Part shown: in pieces, positions 3,795-48,536 of the stretch
Layout: every line of letters starts with the position of its first letter
How positions within the stretch are numbered: the first letter of the stretch is position 1
Sequence record: PQ382034.1
DNA: 64,000 bases
Direction: 5' to 3' (one strand)
Source: Acinetobacter phage vB_AbaSI_3
Notes under the pieces: generated by a model
The model's database searches: none
What the model was told of the DNA's origin: nothing
The model's input: the letters and a program-made list of their open reading frames with translations, nothing else
Program-made: the position numbers and the translations under genes

Positions 3795-4913
3795 TTACTC
3801 CAATAATGCCTTTTCCCACATCGCGTACACACGAGATGGATTGTATTGTTCATATAATGCATTAGCACGTGCAACACGTTGTTCATATGTGTCTTCGAAC
3901 TCATTTAATGCTTTAGAATATGCGGCAATAATATCATTAGTTGACATACCTTCTTCAATCCAAACAACTTTAGTTAATGGATCATGTTCAAGTGTTGCAT
4001 GGCTATAACCACGTTTGATGAGTTGAAGTACAGGCACACCTTTCTCAATAGCTTCCAATGAACCGTGTTCAATAGTGCCTGTGTCATGACAAGTGTTAAC
4101 AAGGACTAGCGCTTCGGCTAATGTTGCCTGGATAGTTGCACGCGGAACATCAATATGTACAAAAGGCTCTTTGAGATATTTCTTAGGTGGTGCCCATTGA
4201 CTTGGCAGGAATGCAGCAATTTTATGATGAGATTTACTCATTGCTTCTAAAGCTACATTTGTCTTTCTGAATTTCAAATCATAGCGCTGTGCTGAAACTA
4301 CAACACCATTAGAAGGCAGCACTTTAGGGCGATTTTCGATTAATGTAGCCGGGAAGAAATTATCTGAGATGATGTCATGCTCTTGCCAATAATCAAAATC
4401 AATTGCACCTTTAGCAACTTTGATATTCATTTTTGAATACACTTGTGCTGTAAGGTCTTTAAATGTTTGAGTTGGCACAAGATTCTTGCCGCCATTTTGG
4501 TGAATAAAAACAGCAGTACGCCAAATTGAAACAAGTGTTCGAATACTAGGATCGAGTGGCGTTGCTAAAAGGTTTCGAATTTTAGGTCCTAACCCGAGTT
4601 TGATCAAGCCATTGATAACACCTTTTGCACCTTCAACAGTAACAACTACATCATATTTTGAATGGTCCAATTGTGAAATTTTGTCAATGATTTTGTTACC
4701 GTGTTTGATAGTGTACTTGTCTACAATTGGGTAGTCAATAGATATTGCATTGACTTTATATGGGCCAAAGTTTTCATCACCGAACGCCATGTAATCGATT
4801 TCATGGTGCTTACTCATTGTTTTGATGAAATTCAATTGAACTGATTCTAAGCCACCAGAAATATAATCAGCATTAAAAGTAATAAATCGACATGGAATGT
4901 ATAAAATTTTCAT
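3795..4913 (-). CDS. GT-B fold glycosyltransferase (candidate hydroxymethyl-pyrimidine DNA glycosyltransferase), paralog 1
   Basis: The C-terminal GSLEAIEKGVPVLQ...E motif resembles the GT4 EX7E region. The N-terminus (MKILYIPCR...GGLESVQ) recalls T4 alpha-gt (ARGLEG). It is a paralog of the next gene and is adjacent to gene 42. Confidence 0.55.
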   Translation of the reverse strand: MKILYIPCRFITFNADYISGGLESVQLNFIKTMSKHHEIDYMAFGDENFGPYKVNAISIDYPIVDKYTIKHGNKIIDKISQLDHSKYDVVVTVEGAKGVINGLIKLGLGPKIRNLLATPLDPSIRTLVSIWRTAVFIHQNGGKNLVPTQTFKDLTAQVYSKMNIKVAKGAIDFDYWQEHDIISDNFFPATLIENRPKVLPSNGVVVSAQRYDLKFRKTNVALEAMSKSHHKIAAFLPSQWAPPKKYLKEPFVHIDVPRATIQATLAEALVLVNTCHDTGTIEHGSLEAIEKGVPVLQLIKRGYSHATLEHDPLTKVVWIEEGMSTNDIIAAYSKALNEFEDTYEQRVARANALYEQYNPSRVYAMWEKALLE

Positions 4914-26163: not shown

Positions 26164-26706
26164 TCAAGTATTCTCTCCATACAAAAAGTCCAGTGCATCA
26201 GTGTCTTCGACCTTTGGTCTTTCTTTTGGCTGTGCCTTTGTCGAAGCTTCATATTGTGTCATCTTATCGTAAATGTCCTGAATAAAGCCTTCATCTGCAA
26301 TAGATGCCATTTCAGGATCACGAGAATCATACACGTTGTTAATAAAGTAGCTGTATTTTACCGCAGTTTGTTTGCGTTCTTTTTTGATACGCTGAATAAA
26401 TGCATTAAAACAAGCCATAGTGATATATGCATGAGGATTATCGTATTTTGTCTCATCAAAATTGATGAGTCCTTTAATTGCAGCCTCTACACCATCACCA
26501 ATCATTTCTTCTTTCCAGGCTGGCGTATAGCCAGAAAAGTTAAAACGTTTTGATAGACCTCTTGAAATAAGAAGTATTGCTCTTCCAATAGTATCATTTT
26601 GTTTGACAATTGTACCAGCGGCTCTACACTCTTCCTTCCAAGAACATATAGCTTCATACAATTCTTTGTTATTCACATAGTTGTGCTTAACTTGTGTATT
26701 ACTCAT
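26164..26706 (-). CDS. 55: late sigma factor gp55
   Basis: Very high identity to T4 gp55 ([87 protein letters not shown]). Confidence 0.9.
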
Positions 26707-28243: not shown

Positions 28244-28519
28244 TCAGCCAATCACGCGATATGAATCATCAGCGTCTAAGATACACCAATAATCCTTTAG
28301 TTCTTCAACAGTCGAAATGTCAATAATTTCACCCGTTTCAGTATTTTTTAGCTTATCGATTCCCCAGATGTCATCGATTAAAATTGTGACACTTTCAACT
28401 GTATAGGGAATTCCAGGCTTTAATTCTGGGAAATATTGTGCAATAAAAACATTATCTTCGAAATATTTTTTGTTGATAATGACAGTATTGCCTATACTAG
28501 GCTTCACTCGAATCGGCAT
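28244..28519 (-). CDS. hypothetical protein (91 aa)
   Basis: ORF track entry. Confidence 0.4.
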   Translation of the reverse strand: MPIRVKPSIGNTVIINKKYFEDNVFIAQYFPELKPGIPYTVESVTILIDDIWGIDKLKNTETGEIIDISTVEELKDYWCILDADDSYRVIG

Positions 28520-28796
28520 TTAGCACCTCATATTCTTGCGGATTGGATGTAGTAATGAATGCCCACCATTTTGCCTTTGGCTGCTCATTTTCTGGAAGTC
28601 GATGAACTTCGTGGACATTAAACTTTTCTGATGTTTCGACACAAATCATCTCAATAACGCCAGATATTTCTCCAAGATTTCTGATGCAAGTAGCTCTATA
28701 TGATTTACCCAGAGATAGCTCTGGGTAATGTATTAAGAAATCATCAGATGTATTGAAGAAATGGTCTGTCAATTTAAAAACCATTCCAGTTTGCAT
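28497..28796 (-). CDS. hypothetical protein (99 aa)
   Basis: ORF track entry. Confidence 0.4.
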   Translation of the reverse strand: MQTGMVFKLTDHFFNTSDDFLIHYPELSLGKSYRATCIRNLGEISGVIEMICVETSEKFNVHEVHRLPENEQPKAKWWAFITTSNPQEYEVLNADSSEA

Positions 28797-29519: not shown

Positions 29520-30104
29520 TTAAATTAAATTTACAGCCTTTGCAATTGCATATGAAATTCGTGGCATAGCAATACCTGTTCCAAAATATACAACCTTGCC
29601 TTCATGTGTTCGCTTGCCATAGGACCCAAGTTCGACACCTTTATATTCAATATCTAAACCCTGCGGCGTATCAACAACTATTGCGTCTTTGAGTCCTTCT
29701 TGTCTAAAAAATGCTAAAGCATCGGTCACGACTGTTCGTTCAAATGACACTAACTCGAGTTTAAGAAAGATTTCTAAGTGTGAATCATCAATTACTCTTT
29801 CATTTCGTTGACAAGGCGTAAGCATCATAAACTTGCCTTCAGATGGGACAGGTACACCGGCTTGAGCATATTTAGTCATCATATCATAAAATGACTGTTC
29901 TGCACTTCCAACGTAAAAATTGTCCTCATCATGCGCCATAGGTACAGCACCTTCAGGGATAGTTTTGTTAATTGCTTGTATGCTGACACACTGTGCAGCT
30001 GAAATAGGCTTATAGCCTAGCTTTTTATAAAACTCTATAGCGCGTAATAACTGTGGTAGATTAATTTCAAATCTTGGGTCAATTGTTAGATGTCGTTCAA
30101 ACAT
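29520..30104 (-). CDS. hypothetical protein (194 aa)
   Basis: ORF track entry; weak resemblance to ligase/synthetase-like motifs only. Confidence 0.4.
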   Translation of the reverse strand: MFERHLTIDPRFEINLPQLLRAIEFYKKLGYKPISAAQCVSIQAINKTIPEGAVPMAHDEDNFYVGSAEQSFYDMMTKYAQAGVPVPSEGKFMMLTPCQRNERVIDDSHLEIFLKLELVSFERTVVTDALAFFRQEGLKDAIVVDTPQGLDIEYKGVELGSYGKRTHEGKVVYFGTGIAMPRISYAIAKAVNLI

Positions 30105-31436: not shown

Positions 31437-31754
31437 TTATACTATATTATCAGGTGTTTGTAAACTAAAATGTTTAATAAAACCTCGAATTGTATCTCGC
31501 ATTGCATTTTCACGTTCGCGATTTGAGGCACAAACTTTCAAGTACTCATGGTTCATACTAATAACTTGTGCAGCATCTTCTACCGTGTCATATACACCTA
31601 ACACTGCAGACTTCCAATATTTTGATTGGCGAGATCCGATTTGAACGTCAATTGAATCATCGGCTTCATCTACCACTTTGTATGCCTTGTCTAGCATAAA
31701 ATTAGGACTAGAATTATAGGCGATTATAACATATTTTCCGACTAAGCTAGACAT
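31437..31754 (-). CDS. hypothetical protein (105 aa)
   Basis: ORF track entry. Confidence 0.4.
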   Translation of the reverse strand: MSSLVGKYVIIAYNSSPNFMLDKAYKVVDEADDSIDVQIGSRQSKYWKSAVLGVYDTVEDAAQVISMNHEYLKVCASNRERENAMRDTIRGFIKHFSLQTPDNIV

Positions 31755-32041
31755 TTTGATTTCTCCGTACGATATTTTGCAATTTCTTCTGCAACAGCTA
31801 AGGCTACATCAGAACGCATCGGTCTAACCTCTAGATACGTTGAATATGAGCCTATAACTATTTCATATTCAAGAAGAACTTCGCCGTTTAAAATATAACG
31901 AGTTATATTTGGCTTGTTAATTTGTTGCTGAGAATGTACTTCAACATTACAAGGGTATCCTTCAGTGTTCAAAATGAATTTAATTATTGCATTAGACACA
32001 CAAAGCTCTTGTTCACATATACGCTCAAAGATGCTTAGCAT
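31742..32041 (-). CDS. hypothetical protein (99 aa)
   Basis: ORF track entry. Confidence 0.4.
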   Translation of the reverse strand: MLSIFERICEQELCVSNAIIKFILNTEGYPCNVEVHSQQQINKPNITRYILNGEVLLEYEIVIGSYSTYLEVRPMRSDVALAVAEEIAKYRTEKSKCLA

Positions 32042-37003: not shown

Positions 37004-37282
37004 CTACTTTTTAGCTTTAATTTCAATATTTTTCTCCTTTGCGTATTGTCGCCCGATTACATAGCCAACATGTGTGCAATCTCTTGAGCATTCAGTCTTA
37101 TTCCACCTGTCTTGTATAAACGTGTAAAAACGTTCGGACTCTTGCTTAGAAGGCGTTTTGAATTGAGAGTAAACTATCAATGCTCCTTCAACAAATTTAT
37201 CAAAATCTTTATCTTCTTCAGCGGCAAGACACTGTTGGATGCAGCATCCAACTAGCATAGCAAAGAGTAAAACTGCCTTCAT
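37004..37282 (-). CDS. secreted hypothetical protein (92 aa)
   Basis: Signal peptide MKAVLLFAMLVGCCIQQCLA. Confidence 0.45.
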   Translation of the reverse strand: MKAVLLFAMLVGCCIQQCLAAEEDKDFDKFVEGALIVYSQFKTPSKQESERFYTFIQDRWNKTECSRDCTHVGYVIGRQYAKEKNIEIKAKK

Positions 37283-41099: not shown

Positions 41100-41340
41100 G
41101 ATGGTAAGTTCATCAGGTCTTACAAGCCCTTAAAGGAACTTAATCTGGCAGGCACTGAACGAATCGAACGCTCGTTAATGGGGTTGGAGCCCACTGTAAT
41201 AACCACTATACGAAATGCCTGTGGCGGAAAGCAGTGTAATCGAAACACAACCGAATTAACAGTCCACTCGCTTAGCAGGCGGTGCCAATCACCCTATTGG
41301 ATTACTTTCCTTAGAATAAACATAATGATGTGACAAGCCA
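41100..41340 (-). ncRNA. candidate structured non-coding RNA region (GC-enriched, multiple local hairpins) adjacent to the tRNA array
   Basis: The region contains hairpin cctgatggtaagttcatcagg and other local stems, has higher GC than its surroundings, and has no convincing ORF (the + ORF 41082..41333 has no SD and odd composition). T4 carries stable RNAs C/D near its tRNA genes. Confidence 0.3.
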
Positions 41341-41688
41341 TTGATTTTGGCGTTGTATATTATTGGTGAGGCGGCGAGAACGTTCTTCATCTTCTTTGCG
41401 ACGTTTTTCTCGCTCAGCCTCTTGTCTTGCAATTCTTTTACGTGTCTCTTCCTCAATTGATCGTTCACTATGGCCACTATATCGTGGAAATCCAGTGCTA
41501 TACGAAGGTGAATCAAACCCCGTTCCATTACGCATTGTCATTTCATTCATGCGTCTTGAGAAATCAACATATTGAGAAACGCTCATATTTCCTCCAAGGA
41601 ATATGGTGGAGTGTGATGGAATTGCACCATCCTAATCCTGCTCTTCAGGCAAGCGCTAATCTATCTCAGCTAACACTCCAAAAGTAAA

Positions 41689-41765
41689 TGGTCTCCGTAA
41701 AATGATTTGAACATTTGACCCTATCGTCCCAAACGATATGCTCTACCAGACTGAGCTATACGGAG
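41689..41765 (-). tRNA. tRNA-Pro (anticodon TGG), CCA encoded
   Basis: Hand-folded: acceptor CTCCGTA/TACGGAG, D arm GCTCAGTCTGGTAGAGC, anticodon loop TTTGGGA, T arm AAATGTTCAAATCATTT, ACCA 3' end. Confidence 0.75.
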
Positions 41766-41766
41766 A

Positions 41767-41861
41767 TGGCGGAAGGTGAGGGGAACGATCCCTCAAGGCG
41801 TGTCACCACGCTCGACTGATTTCAAGTCAGCTGCCGTCGCCAGCCATCGGCTTGACCTTCC
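41767..41861 (-). tRNA. candidate type-II tRNA-Ser (anticodon TGA) with an atypical T-loop
   Basis: Acceptor GGAAGGT/ACCTTCC + G + CCA, anticodon arm GCTGA-CTTGAAA-TCAGT, long variable arm GCGTG-GTGA-CACGC. The T-loop ATCGTTC is non-canonical. Confidence 0.45.
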
Positions 41862-42086
41862 AATATTTTTCAATTCTCACTTAAGGCGGAGGAACACCTA
41901 AATTGTCTTGTGTAGAATGTCCTTTTATACTTTCGAGCATTCTACCACTCAATAAGTAAATCTTGAAGTTTAGTACATTTAACGAGTTGATACTTCAACA
42001 AGCTCATAAACAAGACAATAAAAACATGACGACCTAGGAATTTACGCCATTAGGACACCTAGGTCCATTTACGTCATTTTTGAATT

Positions 42087-42163
42087 TGGCTCCCCGCGGT
42101 GGGTTCGAACCACCGACCTCCAGATTAACAGTCTGTCGCTACTACCAACTGAGCTAGCGGGGA
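42087..42163 (-). tRNA. tRNA-Asn (anticodon GTT), CCA encoded
   Basis: Acceptor TCCCCGC/GCGGGGA + G + CCA, anticodon loop CTGTTAA, T arm GGTGGTTCGAACCCACC. Confidence 0.7.
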
Positions 42164-42170
42164 ATAATGT

Positions 42171-42250
42171 TGGAATCACCCGGAGGAATCGAACCTCTCA
42201 CTTCCTTCCCACTTTTTAAGTATCTGCTTAGAAGGCAGATGTGGGGGCGA
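42171..42250 (-). tRNA. tRNA-like element: Arg-type anticodon hairpin (TCT) plus canonical T arm, but no recognisable D arm (possible pseudo-tRNA)
   Basis: TCTGC-CTTCTAA-GCAGA hairpin and GAGGTTCGATTCCTC T arm with a CGGGTGA 3' acceptor strand. The 5' half does not form a cloverleaf by eye. Confidence 0.3.
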
Positions 42251-42269
42251 GCGACATAAATTCTTAAAG

Positions 42270-42340
42270 TTCTGGCACGAGGAATCGAACCTCGGTGACT
42301 GGAGTACAAAACCAGCATAATACCATTATATGACGCCAGA
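42270..42340 (-). tRNA. tRNA-Thr (anticodon TGT), CCA not encoded; acceptor stem extended by a 10-bp leader/trailer duplex
   Basis: Acceptor TCTGGCG/TGCCAGA, anticodon loop TTTGTAC, T arm CGAGGTTCGATTCCTCG. The flanking gttcttaaagt / actttaagaa extend the acceptor stem to 17 bp. Confidence 0.65.
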
Positions 42341-42656
42341 ACTTTAAGAACTTTTGATAATATTATTTATACAACCATAAAGGCACCGTCATGACCACTC
42401 ATCAAGAACACAGTGAGTTAAAACTTTTTGTGATGAGATTAATAAGGCCTAATCGAAAACATTTGAACTTTGCTAAATAAAAACTTTGATCTTTAAGATT
42501 TTAGCTTTGAACTTTAGCATTGGGATAATGTACAGGATTCGCGCTTGGGAAACCTATATCATCATCAAAGTTCTATAACCTTAGAAGTTAGCCGGATTTA
42601 GGAATACCGGCTCGAACCCTCTACAGTTTTTGATCATGACGATTAAAATTTACCTA

Positions 42657-43223
42657 TCAGTCGATAACGATTGTAGGATTTGTTTCAGTTAAAATTGCAT
42701 CGAATTCAAGATCGAAGAAATCAATTGTAGATTTGAGCTCATCAATTTGTTCTTGAATTTCCATAATTGTAGGTTTTTCTCGTTTTTCCATTAATTGCTT
42801 GAGCTCATCATCGTGTGCAGCTTTAGACAATTTAACTTCGTAATCACGTTCGATGTTAGCAAATGTAGCACGAGCACTAGCTAGCTCTTTCACTAAACGT
42901 GTATACAAAGCTTTAAGTCGAGGTAAAATATGTGTACGATACGTTAATGCATCGTTGATAGACATTTGTTCTTTGCCTACGGTTACCATCGTTTCAAAAT
43001 TTGCTTTATTGACCTTTTTGCGAAGATCAAATTCTGCATCAAGTTTGTCTTTAATTGATTGTATGTTTTTACGAGATTTGTCAACAAATTCAGCAGTTTT
43101 GATTCCAGTGCTAATCTCTACACCATTACGGAATACACCGCAGAATGTCATTTCACGAAGATTTTCGTCGAAAGACACTTTGTTGCGTTTAAGTGTTACT
43201 AATGCACGAGCGATGGTAGTCAT
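42657..43223 (-). CDS. hypothetical protein (188 aa)
   Basis: ORF track entry. Confidence 0.45.
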   Translation of the reverse strand: MTTIARALVTLKRNKVSFDENLREMTFCGVFRNGVEISTGIKTAEFVDKSRKNIQSIKDKLDAEFDLRKKVNKANFETMVTVGKEQMSINDALTYRTHILPRLKALYTRLVKELASARATFANIERDYEVKLSKAAHDDELKQLMEKREKPTIMEIQEQIDELKSTIDFFDLEFDAILTETNPTIVID

Positions 43224-43299
43224 TCAAATTTCCTCTAATCAAAATAATCTTTAATTTATGTAGTTAATTATATAACATAAATCATTAAAAGCCTTTGCT

Positions 43300-43536
43300 T
43301 TACGAATAAGTTTGTGTTGGTTCATAAAATAAACGTTCTTTCAACATTCTGTCGAGCTTTGCAATTGCGGCAGATCGGTTAAGGTACTGTGAACGTTTAT
43401 TTGCACTTTCGGCAATTAAACCAGTTGGTAAATGAGTAACACGTACTGCATTAAAAGGCCGATTGACCCATCGGCGTGCACCACTTGTTCTATACTCATC
43501 AATTCTCAATTCACTAGGTTTGAATGAGTAATCCAT
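43300..43536 (-). CDS. ArfB/RF-H-like peptidyl-tRNA hydrolase-domain protein with the GGQ motif replaced (SGARRW)
   Basis: RTSGARRWVNRPFNAVRVTHLPTGLIAESANKRSQYLNRSAAIAKL parallels E. coli ArfB [20 protein letters not shown]...YRSQELNREAALARL. The DNA was re-read to confirm GGQ is replaced by ARR. Confidence 0.6.
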   Translation of the reverse strand: MDYSFKPSELRIDEYRTSGARRWVNRPFNAVRVTHLPTGLIAESANKRSQYLNRSAAIAKLDRMLKERLFYEPTQTYS

Positions 43537-43549
43537 ATCAATATTCTCA

Positions 43550-43792
43550 TTACTTCAATTTAATTTTGGCTTCAAATACGTAGCGATAATTGTTATCACA
43601 TAATATTTCAGCTCGTTCATATGTTGTGGCCATTCGCAATACTGCTCCAGTATATGAAACGATTGCAAAAACACAATCAGTTGAATCCGGTGATGCGATA
43701 TCACCAACTTTAAAACGAAGTTTTCTATAAGTATATTTATCATCATACTTACATAAGAATTTGGCTAAACTTAACGAGAATGTGAATCTCAT
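43550..43792 (-). CDS. hypothetical protein (80 aa)
   Basis: ORF track entry. Confidence 0.4.
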   Translation of the reverse strand: MRFTFSLSLAKFLCKYDDKYTYRKLRFKVGDIASPDSTDCVFAIVSYTGAVLRMATTYERAEILCDNNYRYVFEAKIKLK

Positions 43793-43898
43793 AACTTTAC
43801 CGTCTTCGTTAAAAATTCCATAGATGCTTCGTTGAGAAGTTTTATCTATGCAGTTTCGACAGATCTAATGTTTCATATTTTTTCCTCATTAAATTAAA

Positions 43899-43976
43899 TG
43901 GTACATGACCTCGGACTCGAACCGAGAGGCTCTTGTTTCTAAGACAAGAAGGTATACCAATTCCCGTCAGTCATGC
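43899..43976 (-). tRNA. tRNA with anticodon TAG (Leu-type reading, CUA/CUG), short variable arm, enlarged D region
   Basis: Acceptor GCATGAC/GTCATGT + A + CCA, anticodon arm TCTTGT-CTTAGAA-ACAAGA, T arm CTCGGTTCGAGTCCGAG. Confidence 0.5.
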
Positions 43977-43977
43977 A

Positions 43978-44053
43978 TGGTGGATACTGGGAGTGCTTGC
44001 ACCTCCAATCAACTACGTTGTCCGCTGCTTTACTATTTAAGCTAACAGTACCC
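43978..44053 (-). tRNA. tRNA-like element, 76 nt, correct acceptor and ACCA end but non-canonical T-loop and no clear anticodon arm (possible degenerate tRNA)
   Basis: Acceptor GGGTACT/AGTATCC + ACCA. It is packed at 1-2 nt spacing between the flanking tRNAs. The T region GGAG-GTGCAAGCA-CTCC lacks the TTC motif. Confidence 0.3.
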
Positions 44054-44055
44054 AA

Positions 44056-44131
44056 TGGAGACGTCGACTGGACTTGAACCAGCATCGTCACGGATTTGCA
44101 ATCCGTCGTATAACCATTCTACCACAACGTC
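44056..44131 (-). tRNA. tRNA-Cys (anticodon GCA), CCA encoded
   Basis: Acceptor GACGTTG/CGACGTC + T + CCA, anticodon arm ACGGA-TTGCAAA-TCCGT, T arm GCTGGTTCAAGTCCAGT. Confidence 0.65.
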
Positions 44132-44138
44132 TTAAACT

Positions 44139-44213
44139 TGGTGGGCCCAGGGAATTTCGAAATCCCAACCTTCAGATTATGAGTCTGCTGCTCTGCCTTT
44201 GAGCTATAGGCCC
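44139..44213 (-). tRNA. tRNA with CAT anticodon (Met, or Ile if lysidine-modified), CCA encoded
   Basis: Acceptor GGGCCTA/TGGGCCC + A + CCA, D arm GCTCAAAGGCAGAGC, anticodon loop CTCATAA. Confidence 0.7.
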
Positions 44214-44222
44214 ATTTAAATT

Positions 44223-44297
44223 TGGTACTCGTGACCAGAGTCGAACTGGTAACCTAAGACTTTAGAGGTCTCTGCTCTACCATTGAGCTACACGAGT
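44223..44297 (-). tRNA. tRNA with predicted CTA anticodon (amber-reading suppressor-type), canonical cloverleaf
   Basis: Acceptor ACTCGTG/CACGAGT + A + CCA, D arm GCTCAATGGTAGAGC, anticodon arm GAGAC-CTCTAAA-GTCTT (U33 and A37 in place), T arm ACCAGTTCGACTCTGGT. Confidence 0.5.
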
Positions 44298-44345
44298 ATA
44301 AAAGTAACTTTTTAATATCAACTTCTCTTAATTGATATTAAAAAG
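44287..44345. promoter_or_regulatory. 18-bp perfect inverted repeat hairpin (gtaactttttaatatcaa...ttgatattaaaaagttac) at the upstream edge of the tRNA array
   Basis: A perfect 18-bp stem with a 10-nt loop, directly 5' (in the minus-strand sense) of the first tRNA; possibly a processing or attenuation structure. Confidence 0.35.
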
Positions 44346-44381
44346 TTACCTCAATTAAGAGGTAACCCGAGGTAATTCAAA

Positions 44382-44879: not shown

Positions 44880-44965
44880 GATAATTTACTCAATGATTTA
44901 TTTGATAAAACTATAATAACACAATTAATTTGCGATGTAAACTGCTTTATGAAATAATTTTCAAA

Positions 44966-45421
44966 TTATGCAGTCCACTCTAAATCAAGATCTTGTACGT
45001 ATTCACTTGCAGCAATAATCGGGTTGCTAATGAAACCTACCTTTGGCAACTCACGTTGTCCAATATCATATGATAGTGTAACATGTGGTTGATAGTCAGG
45101 AAAATCATAAGTTGCACCTAATGCCATTGCATATTTAAAGCGCTCATGAAGATAATCTGAATCAATGAGTATAACAAGAGCTCGTTCACCTGTTTTAGTG
45201 TCAAAAACCTTTAACTCACCGGTAACACCAATTTGTTCGCCTATCAACTGTGGCTGATAAGGAATTTTCACCCGAGAATATGCAATTGTGCAATGCAATT
45301 TGTCTCGCGGGACAGGCTTGTAGAGATCCAATGATTTTTGGATCTCTTGTAACAAGTCTAATGTTTCATCAGCGAAATTGATTGCGGCATAAGTACCTTT
45401 GCCAACTTCACTTAGTTTCAT
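44966..45421 (-). CDS. 2H-phosphoesterase superfamily protein (LigT/CPDase-like), in the gene 57B position
   Basis: Two H-x-T/S-x motifs are present (HCTIAY and HVTLSY) in a 151-aa protein. Confidence 0.5.
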   Translation of the reverse strand: MKLSEVGKGTYAAINFADETLDLLQEIQKSLDLYKPVPRDKLHCTIAYSRVKIPYQPQLIGEQIGVTGELKVFDTKTGERALVILIDSDYLHERFKYAMALGATYDFPDYQPHVTLSYDIGQRELPKVGFISNPIIAASEYVQDLDLEWTA

Positions 45422-46993: not shown

Positions 46994-47226
46994 TGTGCTT
47001 TACAAAATTTTGATGTTATAATGGTTCTACCGGTTCACCGCTCTAATTATATCTATTCGGTCGGAGAAGATAGAGTTTCAGATGATATAGATGTATCAGA
47101 TGATATAGATGTATCAGATGATATAGATGTATCAGATGATATAGATGTATCAGATGATATAGATGTATCTGATATATCTGCACTGAAAAATACAGAATAT
47201 TGTGCTGCGCACAATGATGCGCAGCA
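46994..47226. repeat. copy B (inverted) of the dispersed element, carrying an internal 18-bp x5 tandem array and a 9-bp-stem GC hairpin (tgctgcgca-caatga-tgcgcagca)
   Basis: 46994-47054 is the reverse complement of 15589-15648 (59/60). The attctgta and gctgcgcag motifs are shared with copy A. The tandem array interrupts the element relative to copy A. Confidence 0.7.
47081..47170. repeat. tandem repeat, 18-bp unit gatgatatagatgtatca x5 (last copy ends ...tct)
   Basis: Five perfect head-to-tail copies read directly from the sequence. Confidence 0.9.
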
Positions 47227-48080: not shown

Positions 48081-48536
48081 CTAAATTTTCATCCCAAGTT
48101 TCCTGAGTCCTTCTTCCGTCAGTACTCTGAATTTTACATTTCGTTTTTCAGCTAGCGCTTGTGCTGCTTTCCACTTGTCTAAGTTCACTTGCCACGTGTA
48201 GCATTCATTTTCATATCTACGTTTTGCACCGGCGGTCAATTTTGCAGGAGGCTTTGGAGGCATAGTTTCTTTCTTTGGCTTAATTTCAATGAAGAATTCT
48301 TGCCCTTCATGTGTTTTGAACCAAATGTCCATAAAGTAACGACGTTTACGTCCATCTGCATGAGAAAAATATTGGATGACCACCTCTTCACTTGACCAGT
48401 ACTTTACACGAGGATCAGTATCTAACCAGTTGAAGTACCACTTCTCCCATGACGACCTATATGTTACTTTGTCAACATGCCCTTTGTACTTTGACTTATT
48501 TTTGACGATGTACTTACCGCTGTATGCCACATTCAT
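48081..48536 (-). CDS. 4: head completion protein gp4
   Basis: Position adjacent to the divergent gene 53 as in T4; size (151 aa vs T4's 150). Confidence 0.65.

Follow-up and report, generated by a model that had tools for sequence, protein, structure and literature searches.

The window analysed here is a 64,000-nucleotide stretch of DNA from Acinetobacter phage vB_AbaSI_3 (record PQ382034.1), and it carries on its minus strand an array of tRNA genes headed by one whose anticodon, CUA, corresponds to the amber codon UAG. This gene, which we call the CUA tRNA, is the subject of the present analysis, and its parts are as follows (position 1 is the first nucleotide of the window):

44223–44297, minus strand: tRNA gene with anticodon CUA (reads UAG) and encoded CCA (ARAGORN, Rfam, minimum free energy fold, conservation in five lineages)
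44261–44267, minus strand: anticodon loop CUCUAAA, comprising C32, U33, C34-U35-A36, A37 and A38 (sequence reading)
44263–44265, minus strand: anticodon, TAG on the plus strand (sequence reading)
44223–44226, minus strand: discriminator A73 (44226) and encoded 3' CCA (44223–44225) (sequence reading)

A preliminary description of this DNA, made from the letters alone, had folded these 75 nt by hand into a canonical cloverleaf with a CUA anticodon in a phage tRNA array, and three programs agree with it. ARAGORN, which finds nine tRNAs in the window, all on the minus strand, calls one with anticodon cta at exactly 44223–44297 (75 nt). The Rfam model RF00005 matches 44226–44297 (minus strand) over its full length with 71.0 bits (E = 1.2e-14; gathering score 29) and flags zero non-canonical pairs, which is the top Rfam score among the 10 tRNAs at 40.5–45 kb. 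The cloverleaf, with stems of 7, 4, 5 and 5 bp, is the minimum free energy fold of the 75-mer; the single-sequence folding z-score is weak (−1.77). Together, the covariance-model score and the cross-phage covariation (below) place this tRNA far beyond chance. Divided at its structural elements the RNA is ACUCGUG-UA-GCUC-AAUGGUA-GAGC-A-GAGAC-CUCUAAA-GUCUU-AGGUU-ACCAG-UUCGACU-CUGGU-CACGAGU-A-CCA, in which U8, A14, G18G19, U33, T54-psi55-C56 and the T-loop UUCGA can all be read, so that the set of canonical tertiary-interaction nucleotides is complete; the body is type I, with a 5-nt variable loop (AGGUU), and no alternative anticodon register or 8-nt loop is possible from the sequence. The run A36-A37-A38 is the recognition motif of MiaA, the enzyme of the N6-isopentenyladenosine (i6A) modification at position 37, and is typical of efficient readers of codons that start with U.

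Two labels that have been or might be attached to this gene were rejected. ARAGORN names any tRNA with a CUA anticodon “tRNA-Pyl”, so this label carries no identity meaning. The body of a tRNA-Pyl has a 6-bp anticodon stem, a 3-nt variable loop, a short D-loop without G18G19 and no T-psi-C, and tRNA-Pyl systems include pylS and pylBCD genes. Pyrrolysine is excluded here because the body is canonical (5-bp anticodon stem, 5-nt variable loop, G18G19 and UUCGA all present) and because no pyl genes are annotated in the complete genome of the closely related phage Berthold (below); “tRNA-Pyl”, the common database label, is thus wrong for the CUA tRNA. The preliminary description had also remarked that the loop CUCUAAA is of the su3 type, yet that the body is not tyrosine-like, and we agree on both counts: the match to su3/supF-type tRNA-Tyr is limited to the anticodon loop, and a tyrosine identity is unlikely because the long (type II) variable arm is missing.

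In the 600 bp around the CUA tRNA, identity is 99.2% with Acinetobacter phage vB_AbaM_Berthold (Straboviridae, Twarogvirinae, Lazarusvirus) and 91–99% with about 37 further T4-like phages of A. baumannii. Across Lazarusvirus records the tRNA itself is 98.7–100% identical, and it is 100% identical in Abraxas and Stupor, where the surrounding 600 bp are only 91% identical. Homologues occur in about 45 records of Lazarusvirus, Hadassahvirus and AB1I1M type, in three ZZ1-type phages and in Acj9. The CUA tRNA is already known at the level of annotation: across dozens of records GenBank labels it “tRNA-Pyl”, “tRNA-TERM” or “Sup”, or leaves it unannotated in some (Berthold, Lazarus, Kimel, PhT2 and others have “tRNA-Pyl” or “tRNA-TERM” features), and in the ZZ1 record the accompanying remark reads “possible suppressor tRNA; anti code:CTA”. 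A table in Jin et al. 2014 includes, with no comment, “ZZ1t008 Sup (CTA)” together with the homologous Acj9t18 “Pyl (CTA)” (PMC4177764), and Liu et al. 2022 devote one sentence to the “amber” tRNA of phage Maestro (PMC9247103). Literature searches for a functional study of the CUA tRNA gave only such passing mentions (a table row, a sentence), and these two published mentions contain no analysis of its conservation, recoding, identity or function. The tRNAs of the ZZ1, Acj9, Maestro and Lazarusvirus records do not differ in kind from that of the window, with which they share position, anticodon, A37, A38 and A73. What we add here is the case for selection across five lineages, a natural deletion, arguments excluding recoding and programmed read-through, an assignment of the amino acid to lysine or glutamine, and the decoupling of the tRNA from a neighbouring release-factor-like gene.

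The five lineages compared were those of the window and Berthold (Lazarusvirus), AB1I1M-1, PhT2 (Hadassahvirus), ZZ1 (Zedzedvirus) and Acj9 (Acajnonavirus), represented by six sequences; a bulged U was taken out of two rows before aligning. Standard pairs fill 99.2% of the pair cells and compensatory double changes are seen in 16 of the 21 pairs, a combination of pairing and covariation that none of 500 column shuffles matched, and registers slid along the alignment fall to 24–40% pairing. C34-U35-A36, C32, A37, A38 and A73 are invariant in all five lineages, and the acceptor stems are completely different between lineages. The anticodon arm shows 100% identity among the window, AB1I1M-1 and PhT2, whose acceptor, D and T stems covary; in ZZ1 and Acj9 the anticodon stem varies as well, with compensation, and CUA, A37 and A38 stay fixed. 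The loop CUCUAAA with U33 is retained in the window, Berthold, AB1I1M-1, PhT2 and Acj9, and the 3' end of the Acj9 gene encodes CCC, not CCA. In all five lineages the gene stands at the upstream, gp57B-proximal end of the array, after gp57B and two small open reading frames (ORFs). It heads the array in the window, Berthold, PhT2 and ZZ1, and is preceded by a tRNA-Trp in AB1I1M-1 and by a degenerate 93-nt “Tyr” element in Acj9. Because CUA, C32, A37, A38 and A73 are invariant and 16 of 21 stem pairs show compensatory changes, the comparison indicates that the CUA tRNA is a functional gene under selection.

As to the origin of this gene, no clear parent tRNA was found: pairwise identities to the other tRNAs of the window, PhT2, AB1I1M-1 and Acj9 and to E. 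coli tRNAs are 0.46–0.69, and BLAST returned only matches of about 80% to tRNA-Met/Ile(CAU), Trp and Asn genes of unrelated phages. When 185,579 genomes of bacteria and archaea were scanned for exact occurrences of the D-stem and anticodon-arm pattern, the anticodon being left free, no match appeared that would point to a cellular source, and a scan of IMG/VR with the anticodon arm found phage Kimel only, its four further matches not being tRNAs. Degenerate tRNA-like elements with long insertions lie directly upstream of the CUA tRNA in PhT2 (about 1300–1405 of the extracted locus) and Acj9 (4817–4909); the Acj9 element is the 93-nt one, which ARAGORN calls “tRNA-Tyr”, and both are under the Rfam threshold.

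Does a phage with such a tRNA use UAG as a sense codon? Genes were called by a codon-usage score that, checked on a host contig, gave 45 genes against 46 annotated, with 34 against 35 TAA stops and identical numbers of TGA and TAG stops. The stop codons of the called genes were distributed as follows:

Berthold (complete): TAA 150, TGA 79, TAG 9; TAG share 3.8%
PhT2 (complete): TAA 160, TGA 60, TAG 14; TAG share 6.0%
Window (64 kb): TAA 61, TGA 30, TAG 5; TAG share 5.2%

TAG thus ends only 4–6% of the genes in these phages. A scan that covered the window, 50 kb of ZZ1 and, in full, the genomes of Berthold and PhT2 yielded no convincing case of an in-frame TAG that joins two coding pieces. The hits are almost all antisense to real genes; the two on the same strand in PhT2 are stops of called genes after which the frame stays open by chance, one of the two being merely in frame with the next gene (its Berthold orthologue is arranged alike and has a TAA stop), and Ac42, a related phage without the CUA tRNA, gives similar chance hits. 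A stop-codon-recoded phage with TAG as a sense codon is therefore rejected, since no convincing in-frame TAG was found in the scanned genes, and the opinion of the preliminary description that genome-wide recoding is unlikely is upheld.

For a measure of stop-codon usage in the host we used a bacterial sequence from an unexpected source: the 232-kb contig CAKLQH020000004.1, filed as “Acinetobacter phage MD-2021a”, is bacterial chromosome and carries prfA, hemK, the ribosomal protein genes rpsF-rplI, and the cyo and pga operons. The 94 genes called at 100001–200000 of this contig end in TAA 70, TGA 17 and TAG 7 times (7.4% TAG).

Which amino acid would the CUA tRNA insert? The acceptor stems vary freely whereas A73 and the anticodon do not change, and so recognition by the charging enzyme must depend mainly on the discriminator and the anticodon region. 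Lysine identity in E. coli is set by U35, the other anticodon bases and A73, and several amber suppressors with U35 insert lysine, insertion moving towards glutamine when A73 is changed to G73 (PMC9976931). The pair C31-G39 in E. coli lowers lysine acceptance about 100-fold and raises glutamine acceptance, and A31-U39 is the pair preferred by lysyl-tRNA synthetase (LysRS; PMC1483225). Tabulated by lineage, pair 31-39 is C31-G39 in the window type, A31-U39 in Acj9 and U31-A39 in ZZ1. The inserted amino acid is thus probably lysine or glutamine. The preliminary description had called the identity unclear for a type I body that is not tyrosine-like, and the invariant A73 and U35 and the 31-39 pair narrow it only this far. 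A protein of 194 aa encoded at 29520–30104 (minus strand; PHROG 4806) is annotated in relatives as a “histidyl” or “seryl tRNA synthetase”; it has no Pfam, NCBIfam or Protein Data Bank sequence support, and the name looks unreliable. Its gene adjoins a MazG-like gene; 274 phage records, spread over many hosts and mostly not checked for a CUA tRNA, contain it. As a phage-encoded synthetase for the CUA tRNA it was rejected, as it lacks domain support and is widespread beside MazG in unrelated phages.

We conclude that the CUA tRNA is probably a genuine, functional amber-suppressor tRNA of a T4-like phage (Twarogvirinae, Lazarusvirus type), accessory in nature and working without any change of the genetic code. 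Suppression of UAG by a host-charged tRNA is the likely mechanism, and from the sequence we infer expression, charging, the inserted amino acid and suppression as follows. The tRNA would be transcribed as part of the phage array, and RNase P and 3' processing of the host would mature it, its CCA being encoded; given the A36-A37-A38 motif, an i6A-type modification at A37 is probable. A host synthetase would charge it through the anticodon and discriminator, most likely LysRS (U35 and A73) or glutaminyl-tRNA synthetase (GlnRS; U35), and the C31-G39 pair would favour GlnRS over LysRS. The charged tRNA would then compete with host release factor 1 (RF1) at UAG and cause partial read-through, the visible effect of which would be short C-terminal tails on the products of UAG-terminated genes, which make up 4–6% of genes in the phage and about 7% in the host. 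As to benefit, our guess is a low-cost, weakly beneficial role (buffering of amber mutations, or an effect directed at the host or its defences) in a genome poor in TAG.

Several observations weigh against this interpretation. The ZZ1 tRNA (26196–26269 of the extracted locus, minus strand) has C33 and the loop CCCUAAA, and U33 is near-universal. The tRNAs of PhT2 and AB1I1M-1 carry a single bulged U in the 3' acceptor strand, in the context GCACCUR paired with YAGGU-U-GC, which persists despite a compensatory change at pair 7-66; these versions lie at:

PhT2, 1496–1572 of the extracted locus: CUA tRNA with bulged U
AB1I1M-1, 1494–1569 of the extracted locus: CUA tRNA with bulged U

Both the C33 of ZZ1 and the bulge could lower activity. 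The window, AB1I1M-1 and PhT2 sequences on the one hand and those of ZZ1 and Acj9 on the other are only 62–66% identical, which is the level of unrelated tRNAs, and because of this the common descent of the two subgroups is argued from synteny alone; were their origins independent, the argument that amber reading is selected would gain further strength. A promoter scan gave no promoter adjoining the CUA tRNA, and a terminator-like hairpin lies directly upstream of it. The TAG share of the carriers (3.8–6.0%) is not significantly below that of the host sample (7/94; p = 0.31, an underpowered comparison), and in a raw comparison it looks no lower than that of the non-carrier Ac42 (5/68, or 7.4%, in a syntenic 50 kb). 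Compared with TAA stops, TAG stops have no closer back-up stops and no distinctive +4 base, again in an underpowered comparison. Stop usage argues against very strong suppression that shapes the genome, and equally against a need for the tRNA.

The gene is, finally, dispensable at least in phage fHyAci03, which infects A. pittii, and absent from Ac42. Of the CUA tRNA, fHyAci03 retains the 26 nt at the 5' end, which run directly into the 3' part of the adjacent tRNA(CAU), and the product has no tRNA fold and no ARAGORN call:

NC_049438.1, about 77147–77222 (1501–1576 of the extracted locus): chimeric tRNA of fHyAci03, annotated as truncated tRNA-Met

Because the CUA and CAU tRNA genes have the D-arm sequence UAGCUCAA.GG.AGAGCAG in common, it looks as if fHyAci03 lost the suppressor by homologous recombination with the neighbouring tRNA(CAU) gene. 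Ac42 has six tRNAs, with none of anticodon CUA among them, and Jin et al. found a homologue of the ZZ1 tRNA in only one of four other Acinetobacter T4-like phages, Acj9, listing none for 133, Acj61 and Ac42 (PMC4177764).

Among the alternatives, one concerns what the tRNA would be kept for: as a mutational buffer it would partly rescue progeny with amber mutations in essential genes, a weak second-order benefit that could be selectable in very large populations. Such a role fits a tRNA that no phage gene needs and that is nonetheless conserved with covariation, and its cost would be low, since TAG stops are rare and the tails mostly short; glutamine or lysine insertion would restore or nearly restore mutants in which CAG or AAG had become TAG, and the idea has been raised for phage suppressors before (PMC8386662). 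The selection coefficient would, however, be very small by a rough estimate, Ac42 and fHyAci03 are viable without the gene, and no specific sequence feature points to buffering, so that we regard this as possible but unlikely.

A second alternative would direct the tRNA against the host: the suppressor, possibly together with a neighbouring protein, would alter events at a UAG codon in the ribosomal A site and compete with RF1 or with mRNA-cleaving toxins. The protein in question is the product of the release-factor-like (RF-like) gene:

43300–43536, minus strand: RF-like gene, 78 aa, isolated release-factor domain 3 without the GGQ motif (Pfam RF-1, E = 6.9e-12)

Aligned to E. coli RF2 it covers residues 226–291, with SGA-RRW in the place of SGAGGQ, and it belongs to PHROG 20323, a known phage family. 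All Acinetobacter versions examined lack GGQ (SGARRW, KGASNW, KPT--C, GKHSNW), as does ORF037 of Pseudomonas phage 73 (PGASAW); to judge from these sequences, PHROG 20323 is a conserved, catalytically dead release-factor-domain family. In favour of interference, the tRNA and this dead domain lie within 700 bp of each other on one strand in a translation-related island, every CUA-tRNA carrier examined has the RF-like gene, some 700 bp upstream there is a counter-defence gene (Acb1), and TAG is the stop of about 7% of host genes. However, the RF-like family is present in 66 Acinetobacter records that include Ac42 and fHyAci03, which have no CUA tRNA, and also in Pseudomonas phage 73 (its tRNA content was not checked); the co-occurrence is thus explained by shared ancestry, and on this distribution an obligate pairing of the two genes was rejected. 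Furthermore, an isolated domain 3 has no codon-reading part, and we know of no defence system that is countered by interference at UAG. We therefore think this alternative improbable. The preliminary description had found the suppressor especially notable beside a GGQ-less release-factor-like gene: that the gene is real and lacks GGQ is correct, but the special significance of the neighbourhood is not supported, as the family is also present in Ac42 and fHyAci03. Slightly more doubtful still is the bolder idea that suppressor and GGQ-less domain form a two-part module for UAG reprogramming (by weakening RF1 or protecting against toxins), or that this T4-like phage stands at the first step of TAG recoding.

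If the tRNA instead served programmed read-through, one or a few UAG-ending phage proteins would have extended C-terminal isoforms, an idea close to the regulated read-through of particular phage or host UAG codons that the preliminary description had thought possible. Berthold and PhT2 have a TAG stop in common at gp61.1, at a 169-aa hypothetical protein and at DenB, and a conserved tail follows gp61.1. These are only 3 of 200 orthologue pairs, and in 8 pairs TAG and TAA have been freely swapped; the tails are 0–21 codons long in Berthold, mostly short in PhT2, and differ between the lineages. One of the three shared TAGs lies in a −35-like motif and the other two have a tail that is conserved at the nucleotide level. 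That of gp61.1, identical at this level, includes a hairpin as well as a TATATAAT box and thus looks regulatory rather than coding. Many TAG stops overlap such signals: TAGTATATAAT with the hairpin follows gp61.1, the −35-like TAGTTTACA includes the stops of denB and rI, TAGGAG (a Shine-Dalgarno sequence) that of gp4, and a terminator stem follows uvsW. The genes and stops concerned are:

Window 28497–28796, minus strand: TAG stop in an overlapping signal
Window 37004–37282, minus strand: TAG stop in an overlapping signal
Window 48081–48536, minus strand: TAG stop in an overlapping signal
Berthold 27629, 69788, 115699 and 163853: TAG stops in overlapping signals

Such overlaps may explain why a few TAG stops persist. 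A gene at window 31742–32041 ends in TAG as well. Because the shared TAGs sit in nucleotide-level signals, protein-coding read-through tails are not supported; conserved read-through products were rejected on this ground, and we judge programmed read-through very unlikely.

Two further readings would make UAG decoding incidental or absent. The tRNA could have a non-translational role as a decoy, binding partner or processing signal; its counterpart might be an anticodon nuclease, or a protein that modifies or binds tRNAs. Phage tRNAs do interact with tRNA-targeting defences, and of the arms of the tRNA only that of the anticodon is wholly invariant in PhT2, AB1I1M-1 and the window. Nonetheless, ZZ1 and Acj9 do differ in the anticodon stem, where the changes are compensated, at constant CUA, A37 and A38, and features of translation that a decoy would not need are kept (A73, CCA, T-loop, G18G19), so that we give this role very little credence. 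A decaying or neutral relic, that is a sense tRNA mutated to CUA and persisting without function, would agree with the loss of the gene in fHyAci03 and its absence from Ac42, with the C33 of ZZ1 and the bulged acceptors of PhT2 and AB1I1M-1, and with the lack of a footprint on stop-codon usage, but it is highly improbable because structure and CUA anticodon are both kept, with the best Rfam score of the array, 99.2% pairing, compensation in 16 of 21 pairs and an invariant CUA across lineages that are about 35% different.

The surroundings of the CUA tRNA in the window contain the following features:

41146–44213, minus strand: remainder of the array (downstream of the CUA tRNA), with small ORFs between (ARAGORN and Rfam)
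Array members after the CUA tRNA, minus strand: CAU (44139–44213), Cys, Leu(UAG), Thr, Asn, Ser, Pro, Phe (41604–41679), Trp (ARAGORN and Rfam)
44304–44349, minus strand: 18-bp perfect A/T-rich inverted repeat that ends 6 nt from the CUA tRNA (repeat search)
44343–44368, minus strand: terminator-like stem-loop just 5' of the CUA tRNA (promoter/terminator scan)

The same two-hairpin arrangement is present in fHyAci03, and the hairpins at 44304–44368 may serve to terminate transcription of the upstream small ORFs, or in processing. A sigma-70-like promoter, TTTACA-17-TATTAT, lies at 44941–44913 (minus strand) ahead of the two upstream small ORFs. Some 700 bp upstream of the CUA tRNA, at 44966–45421 (minus strand), stands the gp57B homologue, which Pfam PF23474 clearly identifies (E = 3.6e-48) as an Acb1 anti-CBASS phosphodiesterase. 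Two members of the array are themselves unusual. The tRNA-Phe (GAA) at 41604–41679 (minus strand; Rfam 49.1 bits), whose counterpart is labelled tRNA-Phe in the Berthold record, was missed by ARAGORN and has an unusual D-arm (GCUGAGAUAGAUUAGC). The tRNA with anticodon UAG (Leu) at 43899–43976 (minus strand) has 78 nt, no long variable arm and 33.9 Rfam bits; the fHyAci03 record flags it as a “possible pseudogene”, and its leucine identity is questionable. Elsewhere in the window, the gap between gp3 and gp2 (47070–47177) holds an 18-nt unit repeated 6.1 times in tandem with 95% matches, which gives rise to repeat-peptide ORFs on both strands that are probably not genes.

How does the CUA tRNA, read as a functional suppressor in a standard-code phage, compare with known systems? 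Recoded phages (crAss-like, Lak, Agate; Borges et al., 10.1101/2021.08.26.457843) resemble the window phage in having a CUA tRNA, low G+C content and TAG as the rarest stop, and in both the suppressor is presumably charged by a host synthetase. Unlike them, the window phage has no in-frame TAG that we could find in structural, lysis or other genes, and it is a cultured, T4-like phage of a proteobacterial host. As to the machinery of code change, the suppressor tRNA is present; against a full RF2 there is only a dead release-factor fragment (domain 3 without GGQ), and the synthetase name is unsupported. Borges et al. describe a standard-code phage with a TGA suppressor tRNA as a possible precursor state, and an order of events in which low G+C content and rare TAG come first, a suppressor tRNA is acquired next, and TAG recoding follows (10.1101/2021.08.26.457843). 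With 36.6% G+C, the window would by analogy match the stage of low G+C, rare TAG and acquired suppressor. The psu+ amber suppressors of T4 are laboratory mutants of T4 tRNA genes (McClain 1970, cited in PMC8386662). They are like the CUA tRNA in lying inside a T4-type cluster and in relying on host processing and charging (which for the window is deduced), and the Berthold annotation includes a homologue of T4 cef; however, the T4 suppressors are selected mutants of sense tRNAs, and the CUA tRNA is the wild-type state, conserved across several genera. The lysine and glutamine amber suppressors of E. coli (supE-type, and engineered ones with A73/U35) likewise combine CUA, U35 and A73 with a type I body (PMC9976931, PMC1483225), but the window tRNA, unlike these, has no recognisable tRNA-Lys or tRNA-Gln origin.

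These findings have consequences for how such genomes are handled. Annotation pipelines have no need of an alternative genetic code for Acinetobacter phage genomes with a CUA tRNA, and phage-therapy dossiers should mention possible UAG read-through in infected cells. Phage suppressor tRNAs are normally discussed for phages with a changed code, and here one is kept by selection in several genera of cultured, standard-code A. baumannii phages that are used in therapy. The role of a suppressor tRNA before recoding thereby becomes testable in a tractable phage, with the natural deletion in fHyAci03 as a guide.

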